DNA from: Alphaproteobacteria bacterium
GTDB taxonomy: Bacteria > Pseudomonadota > Alphaproteobacteria > JAGPBS01
Length of the DNA stretch: 56,188 nucleotides
Direction: 5' to 3'
Assembly: GCA_018063245.1 (NCBI GenBank)
Contig: JAGPBS010000002.1
Coordinates: forward strand, 1 to 56,188
Part shown: piece by piece, positions 30,764 to 37,401 of the stretch
Layout: every line of letters starts with the position of its first letter
Numbering within the stretch: position 1 is the stretch's first letter
Made by a program: the position numbers and the translations under genes
Notes under the pieces: model-generated
What the model was told of the DNA's origin: nothing
The model's database searches: none
Seen by the model: only the letters and a program-made list of their open reading frames with translations

Positions 30764-31429
30764 ATGTGCGCAAATCAGGATAACAGATTTTTTTATGACT
30801 TGTCCCCAGAAAATTTTATCACGGAGTGTTTAGCAGAAAACGCTGGTCTAAGTAATAATATTGATATTGAATTTCTATTCAAATTTATCGATTTTGAGCA
30901 GTCATCCTGCATTATAGATTGCGGTGCTGGTGAAGGTCGTGTTGTAGACTATTTGTTGAAAAATAAATCTTTTCATCTAATATCGGCGGTTGAATATGCA
31001 GCATCAAAAATTTCTGTTTTAAATGCAAAATTTAGGCAATGTGAAATAGTGCAAATCAAACATGAGAATATTCTGAATTTTAGTGAACCACATGATTATG
31101 CAATTCTTAGTTTCTCATTCTTATTAGAGTTTGATAAGCTTGAACAGGATTTGTTGATTAAACATTTGGATAAGATTATTTCTCAGAAGGTATTTATTGA
31201 TTTACCTCTGTTTAAAGGAGATCAAAATGGGCAATATTTATCAGGTCAAAGGATGTGTCTGGAAGAAAATTGGGGAAAAACAGAGGGCTATTTTCCACAA
31301 AAATACGAGATCTTAGAATACTGTGAGAATACAGATTTTAAAATCGAGACTATCGAATTATATAGAACTGATAATGGACGAATACGTGAATTGTATGTTC
31401 TTTCAAAGAACCTTCCGGTAGATGTATGA
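30764..31429 (+). CDS. class I SAM-dependent methyltransferase
   Basis: Motif I IIDCGAGEGRVVDYLL, acidic post-I residue (AVEY) and motif II-like DYAILSFSF. The start is ATG 30764 or TTG 30746. Confidence 0.7.
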   Translation: MCANQDNRFFYDLSPENFITECLAENAGLSNNIDIEFLFKFIDFEQSSCIIDCGAGEGRVVDYLLKNKSFHLISAVEYAASKISVLNAKFRQCEIVQIKHENILNFSEPHDYAILSFSFLLEFDKLEQDLLIKHLDKIISQKVFIDLPLFKGDQNGQYLSGQRMCLEENWGKTEGYFPQKYEILEYCENTDFKIETIELYRTDNGRIRELYVLSKNLPVDV

Positions 31430-32461
31430 GTTGTTGAGTTTTCCATCTCGCGATTTGACGATTTTTGGATCGGTATGGATTCTTGAAAAGCCCATTTTTT
31501 CATAAAAGAGGGGTGCTTGATAGTCCATTGTGCTCAATTCTGCGACTTGAGCGCCTCTTTGTTTTAAGTGTTTAAAAGCAAAATTCATGACTTTTGTACC
31601 GAAACCTGTGCCGCGAATCGTAGAATCAATCCAGAAAAGATCAATATCAGCATGAGGAATGAAAACATTTTCTGTATGGATTTCTCCGAAGAGCCCACCT
31701 CTTACATATCCGTTTTTACGAATAAAAATACCGAATTTAGCAGGCGGGAGATCGTCAGAATCATCCTTTTCAGGAACCCAACTGCAATCTGGCATATCTA
31801 TAGGGGCATCTGGGTAGAGGGCTGGTCCAGGGATTTCTTTGTAGAGACGCTGTTCATATTTGTTGTTTTTTAAATGATGAAATGAGCCGGTCAATATATA
31901 GCCATATTCTAGAAGGGTTTTTGTGAAATTATTTTGATCCTTTTTCACATTGATATAGAAGCGATGGACGCCTTTACTGAGTGAGATCATTTCAAGATCA
32001 TTCAAAAAAGACATGGTTTTCTGAAGGCCCGTTTTTTTGAGAAGATGATCAAGCGAAAGAATTGTTGCTTCTTGAAATTTTTCACCAATGGGTGCTTCTA
32101 AAATCGGTGTATAAAGCGTTATTTCTGACATTGTTTCTTCATCTATCATGTCATCATTATAGAGCCCGAAACCATCGTTGATTTTTAAGCAGTCTGAAAA
32201 CGCAGCAATTGGAGAAAGCGTTATTTCAAGATCTCCAGGAACTTTGAATGGATCTTTATAACCAGGGATCTGGATCCATTTGCTTTTCTCAAACCAGAGC
32301 GTCTCACCGCGGGCTGGATTTAAACAATTATCCAAGAGAGGATCAAACCAGAAATTTGTCCTTCTATGTGCTGGAGAATCGAAAGTTGGCGTATGAGTAT
32401 GGGTTGAAATCTCACGGGCTTCTGAAAGGGCTTTTGATGAGAAAGGTAACAAATGTGTCAT
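31403..32461 (-). CDS. two-domain protein: unrecognised N-terminal domain + C-terminal GNAT acetyltransferase (paralogue 1)
   Basis: GNAT motif A FWIDSTIRGTGFGTKVMNFAFKHLKQRGAQVAELSTMDYQAPLFYEKMGF. Start 32461 (MTHLLPF) was chosen by alignment with the paralogue 2 start MTHLLSL. The 3' end overlaps the convergent methyltransferase gene by 27 nt. Confidence 0.75.
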   Translation of the reverse strand: MTHLLPFSSKALSEAREISTHTHTPTFDSPAHRRTNFWFDPLLDNCLNPARGETLWFEKSKWIQIPGYKDPFKVPGDLEITLSPIAAFSDCLKINDGFGLYNDDMIDEETMSEITLYTPILEAPIGEKFQEATILSLDHLLKKTGLQKTMSFLNDLEMISLSKGVHRFYINVKKDQNNFTKTLLEYGYILTGSFHHLKNNKYEQRLYKEIPGPALYPDAPIDMPDCSWVPEKDDSDDLPPAKFGIFIRKNGYVRGGLFGEIHTENVFIPHADIDLFWIDSTIRGTGFGTKVMNFAFKHLKQRGAQVAELSTMDYQAPLFYEKMGFSRIHTDPKIVKSRDGKLNNSYIYRKVL

Positions 32462-32520
32462 TGAAATATCCTGCTGCAATATGATATCAATATAGATTAA
32501 TTTTTATAAAAAAGCAACAG

Positions 32521-33615
32521 TTAAAGATATTTCCGGTAAAGGTAGCCATTGTTGAGTTTACCATCTCTGGTGACTAGAATGTTTGGATCCGTCTGTATTT
32601 TTTGAAAACCCATTTTTTCATAAAAAAGCGGGGCCTGAAAATCCATTGTACCAAGTTCAACAACCTCTGCGCCTCTTTGTTTGGAATAGTCAAAAGTAAG
32701 ATTGATGATTCTGCTTCCAAGACCCGTTCCGCGAATAGATGGATCTATCCAAAACGTATTAAGGTATGTATGTGGAATAAAAGCACCCTCAATATTTGGA
32801 AGACAAAAGAGCCCCCCTTTGATTTTTCCTTTTTTCAGGGTGTAGATGCCAAATTGTTCAGGCGGTAGAGATTGATCTTGAGAGGCCTGAATCCATTCGA
32901 AGTCAGTGTTTTCAACAGTGAGATTTGGAAGAAGAGCTGGGTTTGGGAATTCTTTATAAAACCGTTGTTCGTAGGTGTTTTTTAAAAGGTGGTGAAATTC
33001 ACCAATCAATTGATATCCATGATTAAGCAAAGACTTTGTAAGCTCGACCTGTTCTTGGACAACAGGGAAAAGAGGGCCCATGGCTCCTTTTCCATTTTCG
33101 ATATTTATATAAGAACGACGGACGCCTCTAGATGAAATATCTGTTTCTGCGCGGTTTAAAAAATTCATTGTGCGGGCAAGGCCAATTTTTGATGTAAGTT
33201 CAGTCAGTTCAAAAAGAATAATAGCTTGAACGGTGAGAGCAACAGGGCTCACAAGATAAGGTGTTTTTAGCAGGATACTGTGTAAATTTGCAGTATCGAG
33301 TTTTTCATGCGTATAGGTCATCAGCCCAGCATGCATTTTGAAATAGTCACTAAGAAATGCAATCGGTGAGAGGCTTATTTCAAGATCTCCAGGAACTTTG
33401 AATGGATCTTTATAACCAGAGATCTGAATCCATTTGTTTTTTTCAAACCAGAGCGTTTCGCCTTTTGCCGGATTTAAGTAATTATCCAAGAGGGGATCAA
33501 GCCAGAAATTTGTCCTTCTATGTGCAGGAGAATTGAAAGTTGGAGCGTGGTTGTGTGTCAAAACCTCACAGGCTTCTGAAAGAGGATGAGTTGTAAGAGA
33601 TAATAAATGAGTCAT
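32521..33615 (-). CDS. two-domain protein: unrecognised N-terminal domain + C-terminal GNAT acetyltransferase (paralogue 2)
   Basis: Colinear with paralogue 1. The N-terminal ~95 aa are nearly identical (PTFxSPAHRRTNFWxDPLLDNxLNPAxGETLWFEKxKWIQIxGYKDPFKVPGDLEIxLSPIA). GNAT motif A is FWIDPSIRGTGLGSRIINLTFDYSKQRGAEVVELGTMDFQAPLFYEKMGF. Confidence 0.75.
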   Translation of the reverse strand: MTHLLSLTTHPLSEACEVLTHNHAPTFNSPAHRRTNFWLDPLLDNYLNPAKGETLWFEKNKWIQISGYKDPFKVPGDLEISLSPIAFLSDYFKMHAGLMTYTHEKLDTANLHSILLKTPYLVSPVALTVQAIILFELTELTSKIGLARTMNFLNRAETDISSRGVRRSYINIENGKGAMGPLFPVVQEQVELTKSLLNHGYQLIGEFHHLLKNTYEQRFYKEFPNPALLPNLTVENTDFEWIQASQDQSLPPEQFGIYTLKKGKIKGGLFCLPNIEGAFIPHTYLNTFWIDPSIRGTGLGSRIINLTFDYSKQRGAEVVELGTMDFQAPLFYEKMGFQKIQTDPNILVTRDGKLNNGYLYRKYL

Positions 33616-33674: not shown

Positions 33675-34646
33675 TTATTTAGCCTGTAGAAAAGGGTCGG
33701 CGAATATTTGTTTTGATGGAATGCCGGCCATAAAGGCTTTTGTCTTTAAAGGGTTCACCATATCAGGTGCGCCGCACAGGTATAAATGGATGGAGGATTT
33801 GTTCTGTGGGAGGGATTCGAGCAAAATGGCTTGAAGATCACCTGATTGGTATGATTTATCAGGAGGGCCGTTTAACACACATGGCGTGTAGATGAAATTT
33901 TGATGGTCTTGTGATAGTGCCTCTAATTCTTTGACAAGATAGAGCCCTTCTGCTGATCTTGCGCCGTGGAAAAGTTGAATTGTGCCCTTATGTCCTTTGC
34001 GCAAGGCTTCTTTAATAATACCGTAAAGCGGGGCAAGGCCCGTACCAGTGCCTGCGAGAATTATTGAGGCTTCTGGTTGATTCTCTAGATTATAAAAACA
34101 AGAACCTGTTGGCCCAAAAAGATTGACTTCAGTGCCTATATGGGCCTCATTTTGGAGCCAATGACTCATGTGACCCTTGTTTAGAAGACGAATATGGAGA
34201 TCTATATAGCCATCGAGCATTGGATTGTTTGCAATGGAATAACTGCGCGCAAGTGACGCATCTGTCATCAGTGTGAGATATTGACCTGGTTCAGCTTGAA
34301 ATTCTGTGTTTGGTTTTATTTTGAGGTTGATGATTTCTGGTGTGAAGAGAGATTTGCTAACAATAGTTGCTTTTGTATTGAGGCCTGCATCTGTTAGGTT
34401 TTGGATTGCCAGATCCGTTGTTGGGATGCATTGGCAAGCTAAAAAGAGGTTTTGCTTTTTTATGTTTGGTTTTAGTGAGGCCTGTGCTTTTTGGGGGATT
34501 GATCCTGATGTTGCTTTCATGAGGCATGATTCACAAACGCCAGATTTGCATGAATGAGGCACAGTGAGATCATGCCTTAAAAGACAGTCAAGAACTGTCT
34601 CTCCTTCATGCAAACTATAGGTGTTTTCATTAAAATGTAATTTCAT
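33675..34646 (-). CDS. 2Fe-2S ferredoxin-domain / FAD / NAD(P)H oxidoreductase (FNR-family reductase, N-terminal plant-type ferredoxin)
   Basis: Cys pattern CKSGVCESC...LACQC (C-x4-C-x2-C...C), FAD motif RSYSIAN and NAD(P) motif LAGTGTGLAPL. The start overlaps the glbN stop (ATGA). Confidence 0.85.
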   Translation of the reverse strand: MKLHFNENTYSLHEGETVLDCLLRHDLTVPHSCKSGVCESCLMKATSGSIPQKAQASLKPNIKKQNLFLACQCIPTTDLAIQNLTDAGLNTKATIVSKSLFTPEIINLKIKPNTEFQAEPGQYLTLMTDASLARSYSIANNPMLDGYIDLHIRLLNKGHMSHWLQNEAHIGTEVNLFGPTGSCFYNLENQPEASIILAGTGTGLAPLYGIIKEALRKGHKGTIQLFHGARSAEGLYLVKELEALSQDHQNFIYTPCVLNGPPDKSYQSGDLQAILLESLPQNKSSIHLYLCGAPDMVNPLKTKAFMAGIPSKQIFADPFLQAK

Positions 34647-35008
34647 CGATTTAACACATCGTTACGTACAGAGTTAGCGAGAGCTGCAACTTTTTCAATG
34701 TCAGTTTCAGCAGCACCCAATTCTCTCAGTGTATTACCAAGATGCTCCAACACAATATCAACGTGAGAATCATTAAGCCCGCGTTCAATGAGATGCTTAT
34801 GACCATCGCGCATGTTTTTGCCTGTGTAATTGTTTGGTCCGCCAAAGACCATGGTTAAAAAGCCTTTTTGTTTCGCAATTTGTGTTTCCATATCTGTTGT
34901 ATCAAAGAAATAATTCACACGATTATCACTCAGCATTTTACGATAAAAAATATCAACAGCCGTATCGATGGCAGCGGCACCGCCTAGTTTTTCATATAAA
35001 GTTGTCAT
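34643..35008 (-). CDS. glbN: group I truncated haemoglobin (trHbN / GlbN)
   Basis: 121 aa: MTTLYEKLGGAAAIDTAVDIFYRKMLSDNRVNYFF...QKGFLTMVFGGPNNYTGKNMRDGHKHL is the 2-on-2 globin signature. The start overlaps the nsrR stop (ATGA). Confidence 0.9.
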   Translation of the reverse strand: MTTLYEKLGGAAAIDTAVDIFYRKMLSDNRVNYFFDTTDMETQIAKQKGFLTMVFGGPNNYTGKNMRDGHKHLIERGLNDSHVDIVLEHLGNTLRELGAAETDIEKVAALANSVRNDVLNR

Positions 35009-35436
35009 CTGCTTTCCTTTCTTATTTGATTGTTTTGAGTCAGAGTGAGGCTGGCTAGAGTTGTTTTGTCCAGCACGGTCAGAAAAGCATCAGTTGCACT
35101 ATGCAATGTATGCTTTAAAGAGCAGGTATTTGTGATGCGGCAGGTATTTTTTGCATTGTTAAAACATTCCACAACATGGAAATCGGGTTCTGTTTGCCGT
35201 ACAATTTGGCCAATTGTAATCTCGAATGGTGATTGATTCAGACAAATCCCGCCGTTGCGGCCTTGGATTGATTTTACATAACCAAGTTGTGCAAGCTGGT
35301 GTACAACTTTGACCAGATGAGGTTTTGAGATTCCATACCACTCAGCGATTTCAGTAATGCGGCAGAGTGTTTCCGGACATTCAGCAAGATAAAGCAAAAC
35401 ACGCAAAGAATAATCGGTAAATTTGGTGAGATTCAT
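35005..35436 (-). CDS. nsrR: Rrf2-family NO-sensing repressor NsrR
   Basis: MNLTKFTDYSLRVLLYLA... wHTH is very similar to NsrR. Three clustered Cys (VECFNNAKNTCRITNTCSLK) could serve as the Fe-S ligands. Confidence 0.82.
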   Translation of the reverse strand: MNLTKFTDYSLRVLLYLAECPETLCRITEIAEWYGISKPHLVKVVHQLAQLGYVKSIQGRNGGICLNQSPFEITIGQIVRQTEPDFHVVECFNNAKNTCRITNTCSLKHTLHSATDAFLTVLDKTTLASLTLTQNNQIRKESR

Positions 35437-35455: not shown

Positions 35456-35482
35456 AAAACATATATTTAGAATATATGTTTT
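35456..35482. promoter_or_regulatory. candidate NsrR operator (12-3-12 perfect palindrome)
   Basis: AAAACATATATT-TAG-AATATATGTTTT lies 20 nt upstream of the nsrR ATG and 100 nt upstream of the divergent FNR gene. It can be read as 11-1-11 half-sites AACATATATTT/AACATATATTC, about 8/11 to the enterobacterial AAGATGCATTT half-site recalled from the literature. Confidence 0.5.
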
Positions 35483-35581
35483 AGAGCGATTGTCAAGAAA
35501 TTTATCCATATTTCAGATGACAGAGAAAAAATTATGGGTTAGGTTAGAGGATGTATGAATTGACGAAATGTAAGGTTGGAA

Positions 35582-36619
35582 ATGACAGAACATAAGACAG
35601 ATGTAGCAATTATTGGAGCGGGGCCGGTTGGTTTATTCGCAATATTTGAGTGTGGGATGATGAAACTCAAATGTCACGTTATTGATTCTCTTGAAATGAT
35701 TGGCGGACAGTGCGCCGCTCTTTATCCTGAAAAACCAATTTATGATATTCCGGCACATCCATCTATTTTAGCAGAAGATTTGATTACAAAGCTACATGAG
35801 CAGGCTGCGCCGTTTGGGCCTCATTTTCATCTGAATGTTCAAGTGGTTGAATTACAAAAACAAGAGAGCAGTCGTTTTATTCTGACTCTTTCGAATGGTG
35901 AGAAGATTGATGCCGGCGCTGTGATTATTGCAGCTGGCGTTGGTGCTTTTGGCCCCAAAAAACCACCCATGGATCATCTTGAAGATTTTGAAGCTCATTC
36001 GGTTTTTTATTATGTGAAAAAGCGTGAAGATTTCAGAGGTAAAAAAATTGTGATTGCTGGTGGCGGTGATAGTGCGCTTGATTGGGCGATTTCTTTATCA
36101 GAAGTCGCAGAGAAAATAAGTTTGGTTCACCGACGTGATAAGTTTAGAGCAGCGCCTGAGAGTGTAAGCAGAATGCATCAATTGGTCGCTGAGGGGAAAA
36201 TTGATTTTGTGGTTCCTTATCAATTAAAGAGCCTTGAAGGTAAGGATGGGCATTTATCGCATGTGGTGATTTATGATTTAGAAGGGCATGAGAAAAAAAT
36301 TGAAGCTGATGCTTTGCTTCCCTTCTTTGGACTTTCGATGAAATTAGGTCCAATTGCCGATTGGGGGTTGAATCTTGAGAAAAATCATATAGTGATTGAT
36401 CCGGCATCCTGTTCAACGAATGAACCTGGCATTTTTGCCATTGGTGATATTTGCCATTATCCAGGAAAAATGAAGCTTATTTTATGTGGCTTTTCAGAAG
36501 GGGCGATTGCTGCTAAATCAGCTTTTGAATATATGTATCCGAATGAAGTGGTTCATTTTGAATATTCAACAACCAAAGGCGTTCATGCGATTGATGAACC
36601 GGTGGTGCAAGCTGGGTAA
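35582..36619 (+). CDS. thioredoxin-reductase-like ferredoxin-NADP+ reductase (YumC type)
   Basis: TDVAIIGAGPVGLFAIFECGMMKLKCHVIDSLEMIGGQCAALYPEKPIYDIP is characteristic of TrxR-type FNRs. There is a second GGGDSALDWA dinucleotide motif and no CxxC redox pair. AAGG sits 7 nt before ATG 35582. Confidence 0.88.
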   Translation: MTEHKTDVAIIGAGPVGLFAIFECGMMKLKCHVIDSLEMIGGQCAALYPEKPIYDIPAHPSILAEDLITKLHEQAAPFGPHFHLNVQVVELQKQESSRFILTLSNGEKIDAGAVIIAAGVGAFGPKKPPMDHLEDFEAHSVFYYVKKREDFRGKKIVIAGGGDSALDWAISLSEVAEKISLVHRRDKFRAAPESVSRMHQLVAEGKIDFVVPYQLKSLEGKDGHLSHVVIYDLEGHEKKIEADALLPFFGLSMKLGPIADWGLNLEKNHIVIDPASCSTNEPGIFAIGDICHYPGKMKLILCGFSEGAIAAKSAFEYMYPNEVVHFEYSTTKGVHAIDEPVVQAG

Positions 36620-36626
36620 TTGCAGA

Positions 36627-37193
36627 TTATTTCTGATACCGAAAGCAGCTTGTGAGGTGATCATTCACCATGCCGATGGCTTGCATATAAGCGTAGATGA
36701 TTGTTGAGCCGACAAAGCTCATGCCGCGTTTCTTTAAGTTCTTTGAAATAGCATCGCTTTCTTTTGTCTTAGCAGGAACATCTTTCATGTCTTGCCAGTG
36801 ATTGACAATTGGTTTGCCGCCGATAAAATTCCAAATATAGCGATCAAAGGAGCCAAATTCTTCTTGAATTGCTAAGAAGGCAATTGCATTTTTACGTGCT
36901 GTAAAAATTTTCAGTCGATTGCGGATGAGTCCTGGGTTTAATAAAAGAGCCTCAAGTTCTGCATCTTCCATTTTGGCAACTTTTTGAGGGTCAAAAAAAT
37001 GAAAGGCTTCTCGGTAAGCCTCACGCTTTTTTAAAACGGTTTCCCAGGAAAGGCCGGCCTGGGCTCCTTCAAGAATGAGCATTTCGAAATGCTTGGTATC
37101 ATCATGTACAGGGACGCCCCATTCATGGTCATGGTAGTCGTCATAAAATGCTTTTCCACGTCCTGCCCAAGGGCAGCGAATTTTATCGCGCAT
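36627..37193 (-). CDS. tag: DNA-3-methyladenine glycosylase I
   Basis: RCPWAGRGKAFYDDYHDHEWGVPVHDDTKHFEMLILEGAQAGLSWETVLKKREAYREAF is the Tag signature. Start set at ATG 37193, because the ORF-track N-terminal extension is read-through of the tRNA gene. Confidence 0.92.
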   Translation of the reverse strand: MRDKIRCPWAGRGKAFYDDYHDHEWGVPVHDDTKHFEMLILEGAQAGLSWETVLKKREAYREAFHFFDPQKVAKMEDAELEALLLNPGLIRNRLKIFTARKNAIAFLAIQEEFGSFDRYIWNFIGGKPIVNHWQDMKDVPAKTKESDAISKNLKKRGMSFVGSTIIYAYMQAIGMVNDHLTSCFRYQK

Positions 37194-37216
37194 CGCTGTT
37201 ATTCCTGATTTAAATT

Positions 37217-37292
<76 letters not shown>

Positions 37293-37297
37293 AATAT

Positions 37298-37401
37298 ATA
37301 CCAAACACCATTTTAAAATTCTATCGCTTCGCTCGTCGCTTATGTAGGTGAACTACACCGCGCTCCTCGCTCATAATATAATTTTATCTGGTGTTTGGTA
37401 T
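37298..37401. repeat. 104-bp hairpin element flanked by a perfect 13-bp inverted repeat
   Basis: ATACCAAACACCA (37298-37310) pairs with TGGTGTTTGGTAT (37389-37401), and pairing extends imperfectly about 12 bp inward. The interior has near-direct repeats CGCTCGTCGCT/CGCTCCTCGCT and a small hairpin GTAG-GTGAA-CTAC. It lies immediately upstream of tRNA-Ala. Confidence 0.6.

Follow-up and report, generated by a model that had tools for sequence, protein, structure and literature searches.

Introduction

Among the characterised group I truncated haemoglobins (trHbs), HbN of Mycobacterium tuberculosis and THB1 of Chlamydomonas are known NO dioxygenases (NODs); THB1 receives its electrons from nitrate reductase, and we know of no defined reductase for HbN. 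Experiments have so far not fixed the physiological electron donor of NO-detoxifying globins that stand alone: in 2025, heterologous spinach Fd/FNR was used as the donor for a Shewanella trHbN (PMC11904497), and work on an Acinetobacter haemoglobin found its donor 'not possible to identify' (PMC11836069). [quoted passage not shown] A literature search returned no experiment, whether biochemical or genetic, on any example of this cassette.

Here, we describe an nsrR-glbN-reductase operon in a 56,188-nucleotide stretch of contig JAGPBS010000002.1 (hereafter the window) from an uncultured wastewater alphaproteobacterium. An earlier sequence-only reading of this DNA had held that a cognate reductase for such globins is generally not genetically defined, a claim that is not supported, as the same arrangement had already been predicted in L. 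pneumophila (PMC1274295, PMC3820574).

Results

The ORF listing of the window places three minus-strand genes in a row (Table 1), and both the ORF coordinates and the minus-strand sequence agree with the chain that had been claimed for them, in which the glbN ATG sits on the nsrR TGA (ATGA, 35008-35005) and the reductase ATG on the glbN TGA (ATGA, 34646-34643). Such 4-nt overlaps are peculiar to this genome, the globin-to-reductase gap being never negative in 78 relatives and 0-50 nt in 68 of them. Recent horizontal transfer of the operon is not indicated by its GC content (41.4%, compared with 40.4% for the genome). Wastewater metatranscriptome libraries contain one contig (34599-35050) that spans both gene junctions and a second (34671-35329) that spans the glbN-nsrR junction, although contigs of this kind cannot prove transcription, strand or one single transcript; the flanking genes have no RNA-library contig cover, and this missing cover carries no meaning.

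Table 1 Features of the nsrR-glbN-reductase locus, in window positions.
Feature	Position	Strand	Description
-35-like hexamer TTGACA	35491..35496	-	best promoter-like site upstream of nsrR
-10-like hexamer TATTCT	35469..35474	-	inside NsrR box
Predicted NsrR operator AACATATATTCTAAATATATGTT	35458..35480		11-1-11 inverted repeat, 44 nt upstream of nsrR ATG
nsrR	35005..35436	-	Rrf2-family [4Fe-4S] NO-sensing repressor (predicted), 143 aa
glbN	34643..35008	-	group I truncated haemoglobin (trHbN), 121 aa, PF01152
trHbN-associated reductase	33675..34646	-	323 aa, 2Fe-2S ferredoxin + FAD + NAD(P)H domains
Plant-type 2Fe-2S ferredoxin domain	34419..34622	-	residues 9-76; Cys33, Cys38, Cys41, Cys71; PF00111, 7.7e-12
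FAD-binding domain	34092..34334	-	residues 105-185; R134-x-Y136-S137; PF00970
NAD(P)H-binding domain	33753..34052	-	residues 199-298; GTGTGLAP at 199-206; C291-G292; PF00175

Downstream, GNAT paralogues (33615-31403) follow after a gap of 59 nt, in which a weak promoter-like site (33671-33644) and no terminator-like site was found. On the other side, a TrxR-like FNR gene (35576-36619, plus strand) diverges from the operon and has the intergenic region in common with it; no plus-strand promoter-like site was found in this spacer. For this reason, and as it is a neighbour in none of 80 related loci, the gene was rejected as a member of the unit.

The nsrR product contains an Rrf2 domain (E 1e-37), and its top NCBIfam model is NsrR, with a score of 140.6 bits that lies under the equivalog cut-off of 182 (NF008240); this model is built on enterobacterial-type NsrR, and the low score weakens a claim of strict orthology rather than the mechanism. 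The best PDB match is NsrR of S. coelicolor (5n07, E 8e-19), whose [4Fe-4S] ligands (three Cys and Asp8) align with D8, C91, C99 and C105, all invariant in 15 cassette-linked NsrR homologues. An NsrR homologue is present in the flank of ~63 of 81 reductase loci. The genome also holds a second Rrf2 gene elsewhere (contig C80, 10970-11353).

Upstream of nsrR, the best promoter-like site (TTGACA-16 nt-TATTCT, 10/12 matches) goes no further than a match to consensus; sites of this kind are, over the whole region, just as numerous as expected from shuffling. The -10 hexamer of the best site is overlapped by the predicted NsrR box, which has 10 of 11 palindromic pairs and 17/22 matches to AAGATGYATTTNAAATRCATCTT; the 11-1-11 operator pattern AAGATGCATTTnAAATGCATCTT is likewise matched at 17/22 positions in the window and at up to 22/22 in relatives. 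Near-identical boxes are similarly placed (41-49 nt) in the three nearest relatives, and a box with at least 17/22 matches to the canonical NsrR consensus stands ahead of the first gene in most related loci, compared with a background best of 11.6. Within its own 1.99-Mb genome, the box at 35458-35480 is the only strong NsrR site (30.6 bits; next 18.7).

These data bear on whether the Rrf2 protein could be a sensor of iron, Fe-S status or redox in the manner of RirA or IscR, with the operon serving haem, iron or oxygen homeostasis. RirA scores nearly level with the sub-threshold NsrR match (125.3 vs 140.6 bits); yet the operator fits the NsrR consensus both here and across phyla, the best solved homologue is an NsrR with all four cluster ligands aligned, and the second Rrf2 gene is available for an IscR role, making this the least probable of the readings we considered. 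The NsrR-type regulator proposed from sequence is instead borne out by its domain match, its retained 5n07 ligands and its NsrR-consensus operator.

The glbN product matches Bac_globin (PF01152, E 4e-19, 69.5 bits against a cut-off of 21), and its top 20 PDB matches are all group 1/cyanoglobin entries, led by Synechocystis GlbN (1s69, 3e-32), with group II entries at E 1e-6 or weaker. Y22(B10), Q43(E7), K46(E10), Q47(E11) and H70(F8), as well as the Gly-Gly motifs G9-G10 and G56-G57, are invariant in 29 cassette globins. The family match, the group-1 structures and the B10, E7, E11 and F8 residues confirm the earlier assignment to group I, and both the fold family and these four positions are held in common with Synechocystis GlbN, Chlamydomonas THB1 and M. 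tuberculosis HbN. The cassette globin differs from Synechocystis GlbN in lacking both His at E10 and an equivalent of His117, so that neither bis-His ligation nor covalent attachment of the haem, as in that protein, is expected; the cassette globin also lacks the pre-A extension of HbN. In THB1, Lys at E10 ligates the haem iron.

The reductase has the domain order Fer2, FAD_binding_6 and NAD_binding_1, with the Cx4Cx2C...C, RxYS and GxGxxP motifs of the three domains. The four ferredoxin-domain Cys are invariant in 27 reductase sequences, and R134, Y136, S137, the GTGxxAP motif and C291-G292 form invariant columns of the reductase alignment. Scores against named equivalogs all fall under the cut-off (PRK05713 184/338, MmoC 168/500 and BenC 147/430 bits), and on sequence comparison the protein represents a subfamily of its own that has no name. 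The match to the Hmp model is confined to the FNR part (model residues 183-392, 70/432 bits), which does not qualify the reductase as an Hmp. Its closest solved relative is 5ogx (1.6e-34), titled only 'Cytochrome P450 reductase' in the PDB, which we take to be GcoB; Hmp (1gvh) is more distant, at 9e-11. A quick tree, for which SH-aLRT is the sole measure of support, places the globin-linked reductases in a single clade (99 SH-aLRT), separate from globin-less paralogues of lower identity, and gene order follows the branching (15 changes vs 40.9 with shuffled labels); the window's reductase sits on a long branch and has an odd amino-acid make-up, leaving its exact sister unsure.

In 79 of the 80 loci that were fetched, from about ten phyla, the gene directly before that of the reductase, in the same orientation, encodes a trHbN, the single exception being broken by a contig end; because the pair recurs in this way, a chance juxtaposition of the genes is excluded. 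Most of these loci hold trHbN and a co-directional, adjacent Fer2-FNR reductase behind an NsrR box, and the window's locus is a cassette of this type, as described by Rodionov in 2005. In a phylum sample of 401 genomes, dominated by one family so that counts are not independent, both genes were present in 73 and, by manual reading of coordinates, adjacent on one contig in ~65. Seven genomes of this sample contained a trHbN homologue without this reductase and with no obvious assembly break, and therefore not every trHbN requires this reductase. No globin-reductase fusion was found among longer globin-containing proteins or the 120 best reductase relatives, which is weak evidence of absence. 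The sequence-only reading had claimed a dedicated reductase neighbour and would have been refuted by a pair confined to this genome; with the globin directly upstream in nearly every locus, the former stands, and the co-occurrence and synteny survey found the pair far beyond this genome.

Adjacency need not mean globin reduction, and the protein might be a general electron-transfer component or one belonging to an oxygenase or sugar pathway. Some source annotations indeed call it CDP-6-deoxy sugar reductase E3 or NAD(P)H-flavin reductase, its nearest curated models are the sub-threshold oxygenase reductases and PRK05713, and there are the paralogues without globin. We nevertheless judge this very unlikely, given a synteny that holds across phyla with gaps of 0-50 nt, the separate clade of the globin-linked reductases, the one NsrR operator common to globin and reductase, and a search of the ORF list and domains in which no oxygenase or sugar-pathway genes were found in the window's operon.

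A direct pairing of globin and reductase is also weakly favoured by complex prediction, in which the modelled pair reached an ipSAE of 0.50 (best control 0.00), a weak band: of 80 solved complexes, 58 reach this mark, as do 2 of 110 mismatched pairs, with only 7 of those 58 complexes but both mismatches at 0.60 or under. The prediction runs had at least 85% of contacts in common, with partner pLDDT of at least 81.

Carriers of the cassette are mostly free-living soil and water bacteria, and most are aerobes, with microaerophiles and sludge organisms among them. The latter would suit an NO-responsive cassette with another chemistry, such as NO reduction (to N2O) at low oxygen, nitrite or peroxynitrite handling, or NO buffering or signal modulation, as would the invariant Lys E10, the delivery of electrons via a one-electron [2Fe-2S] centre unlike that in Hmp, and the fact that NOD and NO reductase activity are both known in other NO-protective globins (PMC11836069). 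Such chemistries appear quite unlikely to us, however, considering that NOD-active trHbNs have this same TyrB10/GlnE7/GlnE11 distal site, that aerobes predominate, and that both published treatments propose NO oxidation (PMC1274295, PMC3820574). NO dioxygenation remains our preferred reading.

Discussion

The gene anatomy, conserved cofactor ligands and cross-phyla synteny observed here, along with an operator that is the sole strong one in the genome, are consistent with an operon that encodes a two-component nitric oxide dioxygenase, regulates itself and is derepressed by NO, a reading that we consider likely. In the absence of NO, holo-NsrR, with its [4Fe-4S] cluster on Asp8, Cys91, Cys99 and Cys105, would occupy the 23-bp palindrome over the -10 element of the operon promoter and block transcription; nitrosylation of the cluster would make NsrR leave the operator. 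One mRNA would then serve the three genes, with the ATGA overlaps providing translational coupling. Electrons are predicted to pass from NAD(P)H to FAD and on to the reductase's own [2Fe-2S] domain, which would dock with trHbN and reduce its ferric haem. Oxy-ferrous trHbN, with its TyrB10/GlnE7/GlnE11 distal site, would convert NO to nitrate before being recycled. By analogy, the proposed electron path to haem has a precedent in 5ogx, which reduces a haem protein directly.

A further, unlikely scenario is that the cassette constitutes both the sole NO defence of the organism and its whole NsrR regulon, and that a Lys-E10 globin fed via [2Fe-2S] may work unlike Hmp, for example by reductase-gated Lys-His hexacoordination or as a dual NOD/NO-reductase at low oxygen. 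If true, it would represent a distinct and very widespread NO-detoxifying enzyme class with a known physiological reductase.

The source organism occurs in wastewater and activated sludge, and is probably a protist-associated alphaproteobacterium with a reduced genome and likely a symbiont. No Hmp, Hcp, NorV, NirS or NirK was found in its genome (rated 100% complete, 1.99 Mb), and the operon appears to be its only NO defence; NnrS is left out of this list, as the control genomes in the search for it were silent. The suggestion that the operon answers host-derived NO fares less well, as carriers are mostly free-living and nitrifiers and denitrifiers are further sources of NO in sludge.

True trHbN NOD kinetics could be obtained with the conserved glbN-reductase pair, a native system that is ready for use, and culturable carriers, including Myxococcus, Corallococcus, Archangium, Methylobacter marinus and Legionella, are open to genetics. 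The window's own contribution is small, namely a compact overlapping form, a likely symbiont host and what is apparently the only NO defence of that host.

Compared with known systems, the window's reductase has the domain order and cofactor motifs of 5ogx, T4moF (4wqm), MmoC (1tvc) and BenC (1krh), in which a [2Fe-2S] domain likewise passes single electrons on to a separate metalloprotein partner, a haem protein in the case of 5ogx. Identity to these proteins is ~30% or less, their partner is an oxygenase or P450 rather than a globin, and, unlike them, the window's reductase clade has its own invariant motif, GP[AT]GxCFY.

The L. pneumophila glbN-lpg2536 unit is closer still: as in the window, an NsrR-type regulator accompanies a group I trHb that resembles cyanoglobin and a gene for a ferredoxin reductase, and the unit is the sole predicted NsrR target of a genome without hmp and hcp. 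Legionella is a gammaproteobacterium, whereas the window's host is an alphaproteobacterium, and in the window's operon nsrR is the first gene, joined by ATGA overlap. The unit is real and widespread, yet not new, the Legionella prediction dating from 2005.

Globin and reductase probably form a two-protein NO-destroying unit, which resembles Hmp in combining a haem globin with an FNR-family FAD/NAD(P)H module, in the NsrR control that Hmp has in many bacteria and in converting NO to nitrate, the latter being a prediction here. Hmp, however, is one polypeptide with a 3/3 globin in which FAD reduces the haem directly, whereas the window encodes two proteins, the globin having the 2/2 fold and the reductase an added [2Fe-2S] domain. 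The description of the pair as a split analogue of Hmp accordingly holds for function and fails for structure, given the 2/2 fold, the additional 2Fe-2S domain and a reductase nearer to oxygenase and P450 reductases (5ogx, BenC, MmoC); the cassette parallels Hmp in function without being a split homologue of it.

Operon layout and gene products

Three minus-strand open reading frames lie exactly where the sequence-only reading had placed them. Read directly, the minus strand has two ATGA motifs, at 35008-35005 and 34646-34643, in each of which a start codon overlaps the stop of the gene before, as had also been claimed. These overlaps are a local feature of a compact genome, because the globin-to-reductase gap is never negative in relatives (0/78; 0–50 nt in 68/78). 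The GC of the operon matches that of the genome. Metatranscriptome contigs from libraries of three studies cover parts of nsrR, glbN and the reductase gene, one (34599-35050) spanning both gene junctions and another (34671-35329) spanning glbN–nsrR, but they do not prove transcription or a single mRNA.

Features of the window and related loci (G, genome; C, contig)
Feature	Position	Strand	Description
nsrR	35436..35005	minus	ORF, 143 aa
glbN	35008..34643	minus	ORF, 121 aa
Reductase gene	34646..33675	minus	ORF, 323 aa
NsrR box	35458-35480		23-bp 11-1-11 palindrome AACATATATTCTAAATATATGTT, 44 nt upstream of nsrR
Flavoprotein gene	35576-36619	plus	Pyr_redox_2; TrxR model 139 of 343 bits
GNAT paralogues	31403-33615	minus	Two tandem genes, 358 + 364 aa
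3-Methyladenine DNA glycosylase I gene	36627-37304	minus	Adenine_glyco, E 5e-81
Second Rrf2-family gene	G000:C80:10970-11353	plus	Other contig of the same genome, 106 bits
Stop-bearing reductases	G087:C42:4046-4993, G379:C4:28860-29807, G427:C165:1819-2766, G406:C114:2958-3905		One in-frame stop each: TGA, TGA, TAG, TAA

The glbN product matches Bac_globin (PF01152, E 4e-19) and is, judged from its sequence, a group I truncated haemoglobin (trHbN). Its top solved relatives are Synechocystis GlbN (1s69, 3e-32), Tetrahymena group-1 trHb, Chlamydomonas THB1 and M. tuberculosis HbN; in the PDB comparison, no group II globin does better than 1e-6. Alignment identified Tyr22 (B10), Gln43 (E7), Lys46 (E10), Gln47 (E11) and His70 (F8), all invariant among 29 cassette-linked globins; conservation of this set across phyla is unusually high (mean column identity 79%). 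Unlike Synechocystis GlbN, the globin has neither an E10 His nor His117.

Some relatives carry more elaborate globins. In a proteobacterial family (f75), two or three tandem trHbN genes precede one reductase (e.g. G313:C41:2347-4314, G292:C10:28609-31018), and in some of its genomes they are fused as 273-aa or 404-aa di-/tri-globins (proteins P0123-P0129). Proteins P0130-P0142 (630–820 aa), some named as coming from Candidatus Electrothrix (cable bacteria), join a group I trHb domain to a multihaem c-type cytochrome domain (PF13435). Such fusions hint at another electron donor for this globin type, built into the protein itself.

The reductase combines Fer2, FAD_binding_6 and NAD_binding_1 domains, with Cys33/38/41/71, R134-x-Y-S, GTGTGLAP and C291-G invariant in its relatives. 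Its best NCBIfam model is PRK05713 (184 bits, below the cut-off of 338), and its closest solved relatives are P450 reductase 5ogx (1.6e-34), T4moF, MmoC, CarAd and BenC, three-domain reductases of the same type that serve separate metalloproteins. A complex prediction for globin and reductase (custom alignments; haem and 2Fe-2S included) gave ipSAE 0.50 against 0.00 for the best control and weakly supports docking; the ipSAE mark is reached by 58/80 solved complexes and 2/110 mismatched pairs, but values of 0.60 or less include just 7 of those 58 and both mismatches. In four genomes of one genus, the globin-adjacent reductase has an in-frame stop, which could be decay of the gene or else an assembly error.

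Regulator and operator

The nsrR product has an Rrf2 domain (Pfam, E 1e-37); NsrR is its best NCBIfam model (140.6 bits, below the cut-off of 182; RirA, 125.3 bits) and S. coelicolor NsrR (5n07, E 8e-19) its closest solved relative. Asp8 and three cluster cysteines line up with those of 5n07, and D8, C91, C99 and C105 are invariant among 15 cassette-linked homologues. The genome's other Rrf2-family gene presumably encodes an IscR-type regulator.

The box fits the NsrR consensus at 17/22 positions, with 10/11 palindromic pairs; the best promoter-like site (TTGACA-16-TATTCT) has its -10 hexamer within the box. A matrix scan found it to be the only strong site in the 1.99-Mb genome (30.6 bits vs 18.7 for the runner-up).

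Distribution and synteny

More than 1,800 reductase relatives were found in the protein collection at E 1e-30 or better, and a pattern scan covering a single genome from each species confirmed at least 588. A trHbN gene lies directly upstream on the same strand in 79 of the 80 best reductase loci, the exception beginning at a contig edge, which bears out the expectation that the pair occurs beyond its source genome. These loci span Alpha-, Gamma- and Zetaproteobacteria, Gallionellaceae, Myxococcota, Acidobacteriota, Planctomycetota, Hydrogenedentota, Sumerlaeota and others. Below ~35% identity, reductase paralogues have no globin in their neighbourhood, and a quick ML tree separates them from the globin-linked reductases, which group as a single clade (99 SH-aLRT).

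Gene order was scored in 81 syntenic loci (the 79 plus two more): glb>red>nsrR in 38, nsrR>glb>red in 17 and divergent in 8, with nsrR absent from the flank in 18. Order follows the tree (15 changes vs 40.9 with shuffled labels), in which the window reductase belongs to a clade of nsrR>glb>red loci, mainly proteobacterial (97 SH-aLRT). Most loci have a canonical NsrR box ahead of their first gene, scoring up to 22/22, against a mean best of 11.6 in random 210-nt stretches.

In a phylum sample of 401 genomes, skewed to one family, a trHbN homologue occurs in 85, the reductase in 89 and both in 73; the pair is adjacent in ~65 of the 73 (coordinates read by eye), most others being split by contig ends. 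Seven genomes have the globin without such a reductase.

Genomic and environmental context

Divergent from nsrR, and sharing with it the 139-bp spacer that holds the box, is a thioredoxin-reductase-like flavoprotein gene, whose product is presumably a ferredoxin-NADP reductase (TrxR-type FNR). NsrR may control it; its tie to the operon is probably coincidental, since it neighbours none of the 80 related loci. An ordinary glycosylase gene adjoins it. The GNAT-domain paralogues, with a common N-terminal region of unknown type, begin 59 nt beyond the reductase gene, also on the minus strand; co-transcription with the operon is possible, as no terminator-like site was found in the gap.

Among the matches listed, the closest reductase is from a 'Rickettsiales' MAG (55% identity), and GTDB relatives share class at closest. 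Hmp, Hcp, NorV, NirS and NirK were not found in the genome (rated 100% complete); the cassette is therefore apparently the one NO defence recognisable there, and the source of the NO would have to lie outside the cell. The proposed exposure to host-derived NO is not well supported: window DNA was detected in runs from wastewater and activated sludge, across several studies.

Proposed mechanism and comparison with known systems

Our model rests on direct observation for gene anatomy, ligands, operator and synteny; how NO is sensed, the order of electron transfer, docking and the products are taken by analogy from established NsrR, trHbN and BenC/MmoC/P450-type reductases. Holo-NsrR bound over the -10 would repress the operon until its cluster is nitrosylated by NO and it leaves the DNA. 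Globin and reductase would then be made from the coupled genes, NAD(P)H would supply electrons that reach ferric haem by way of FAD and then [2Fe-2S], and trHbN in its oxy-ferrous state would convert NO to nitrate. Comparative genomics supports this predicted NO-detoxifying unit well.

The claim of novelty, by contrast, falls to earlier work. [quoted passage not shown] 2005, PMC1274295). Gardner 2012 cited the case again as evidence that ferredoxin reductases donate electrons to trHbs (PMC3820574), and Gomez-Valero 2014 mentioned Legionella trHbN with pathogenic species (PMC4256840). No published test of the pair was found in the literature searched; recent studies on other NO globins used heterologous reductases or reported the electron donor as unknown (PMC11904497, PMC11836069). 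The description 'split analogue of Hmp' holds for analogue and fails for a split homologue, as the reductase scores only 70 bits with the Hmp model (Hmp structure 1gvh, 9e-11). By its sequence, the cassette is a further example of a known, predicted kind.
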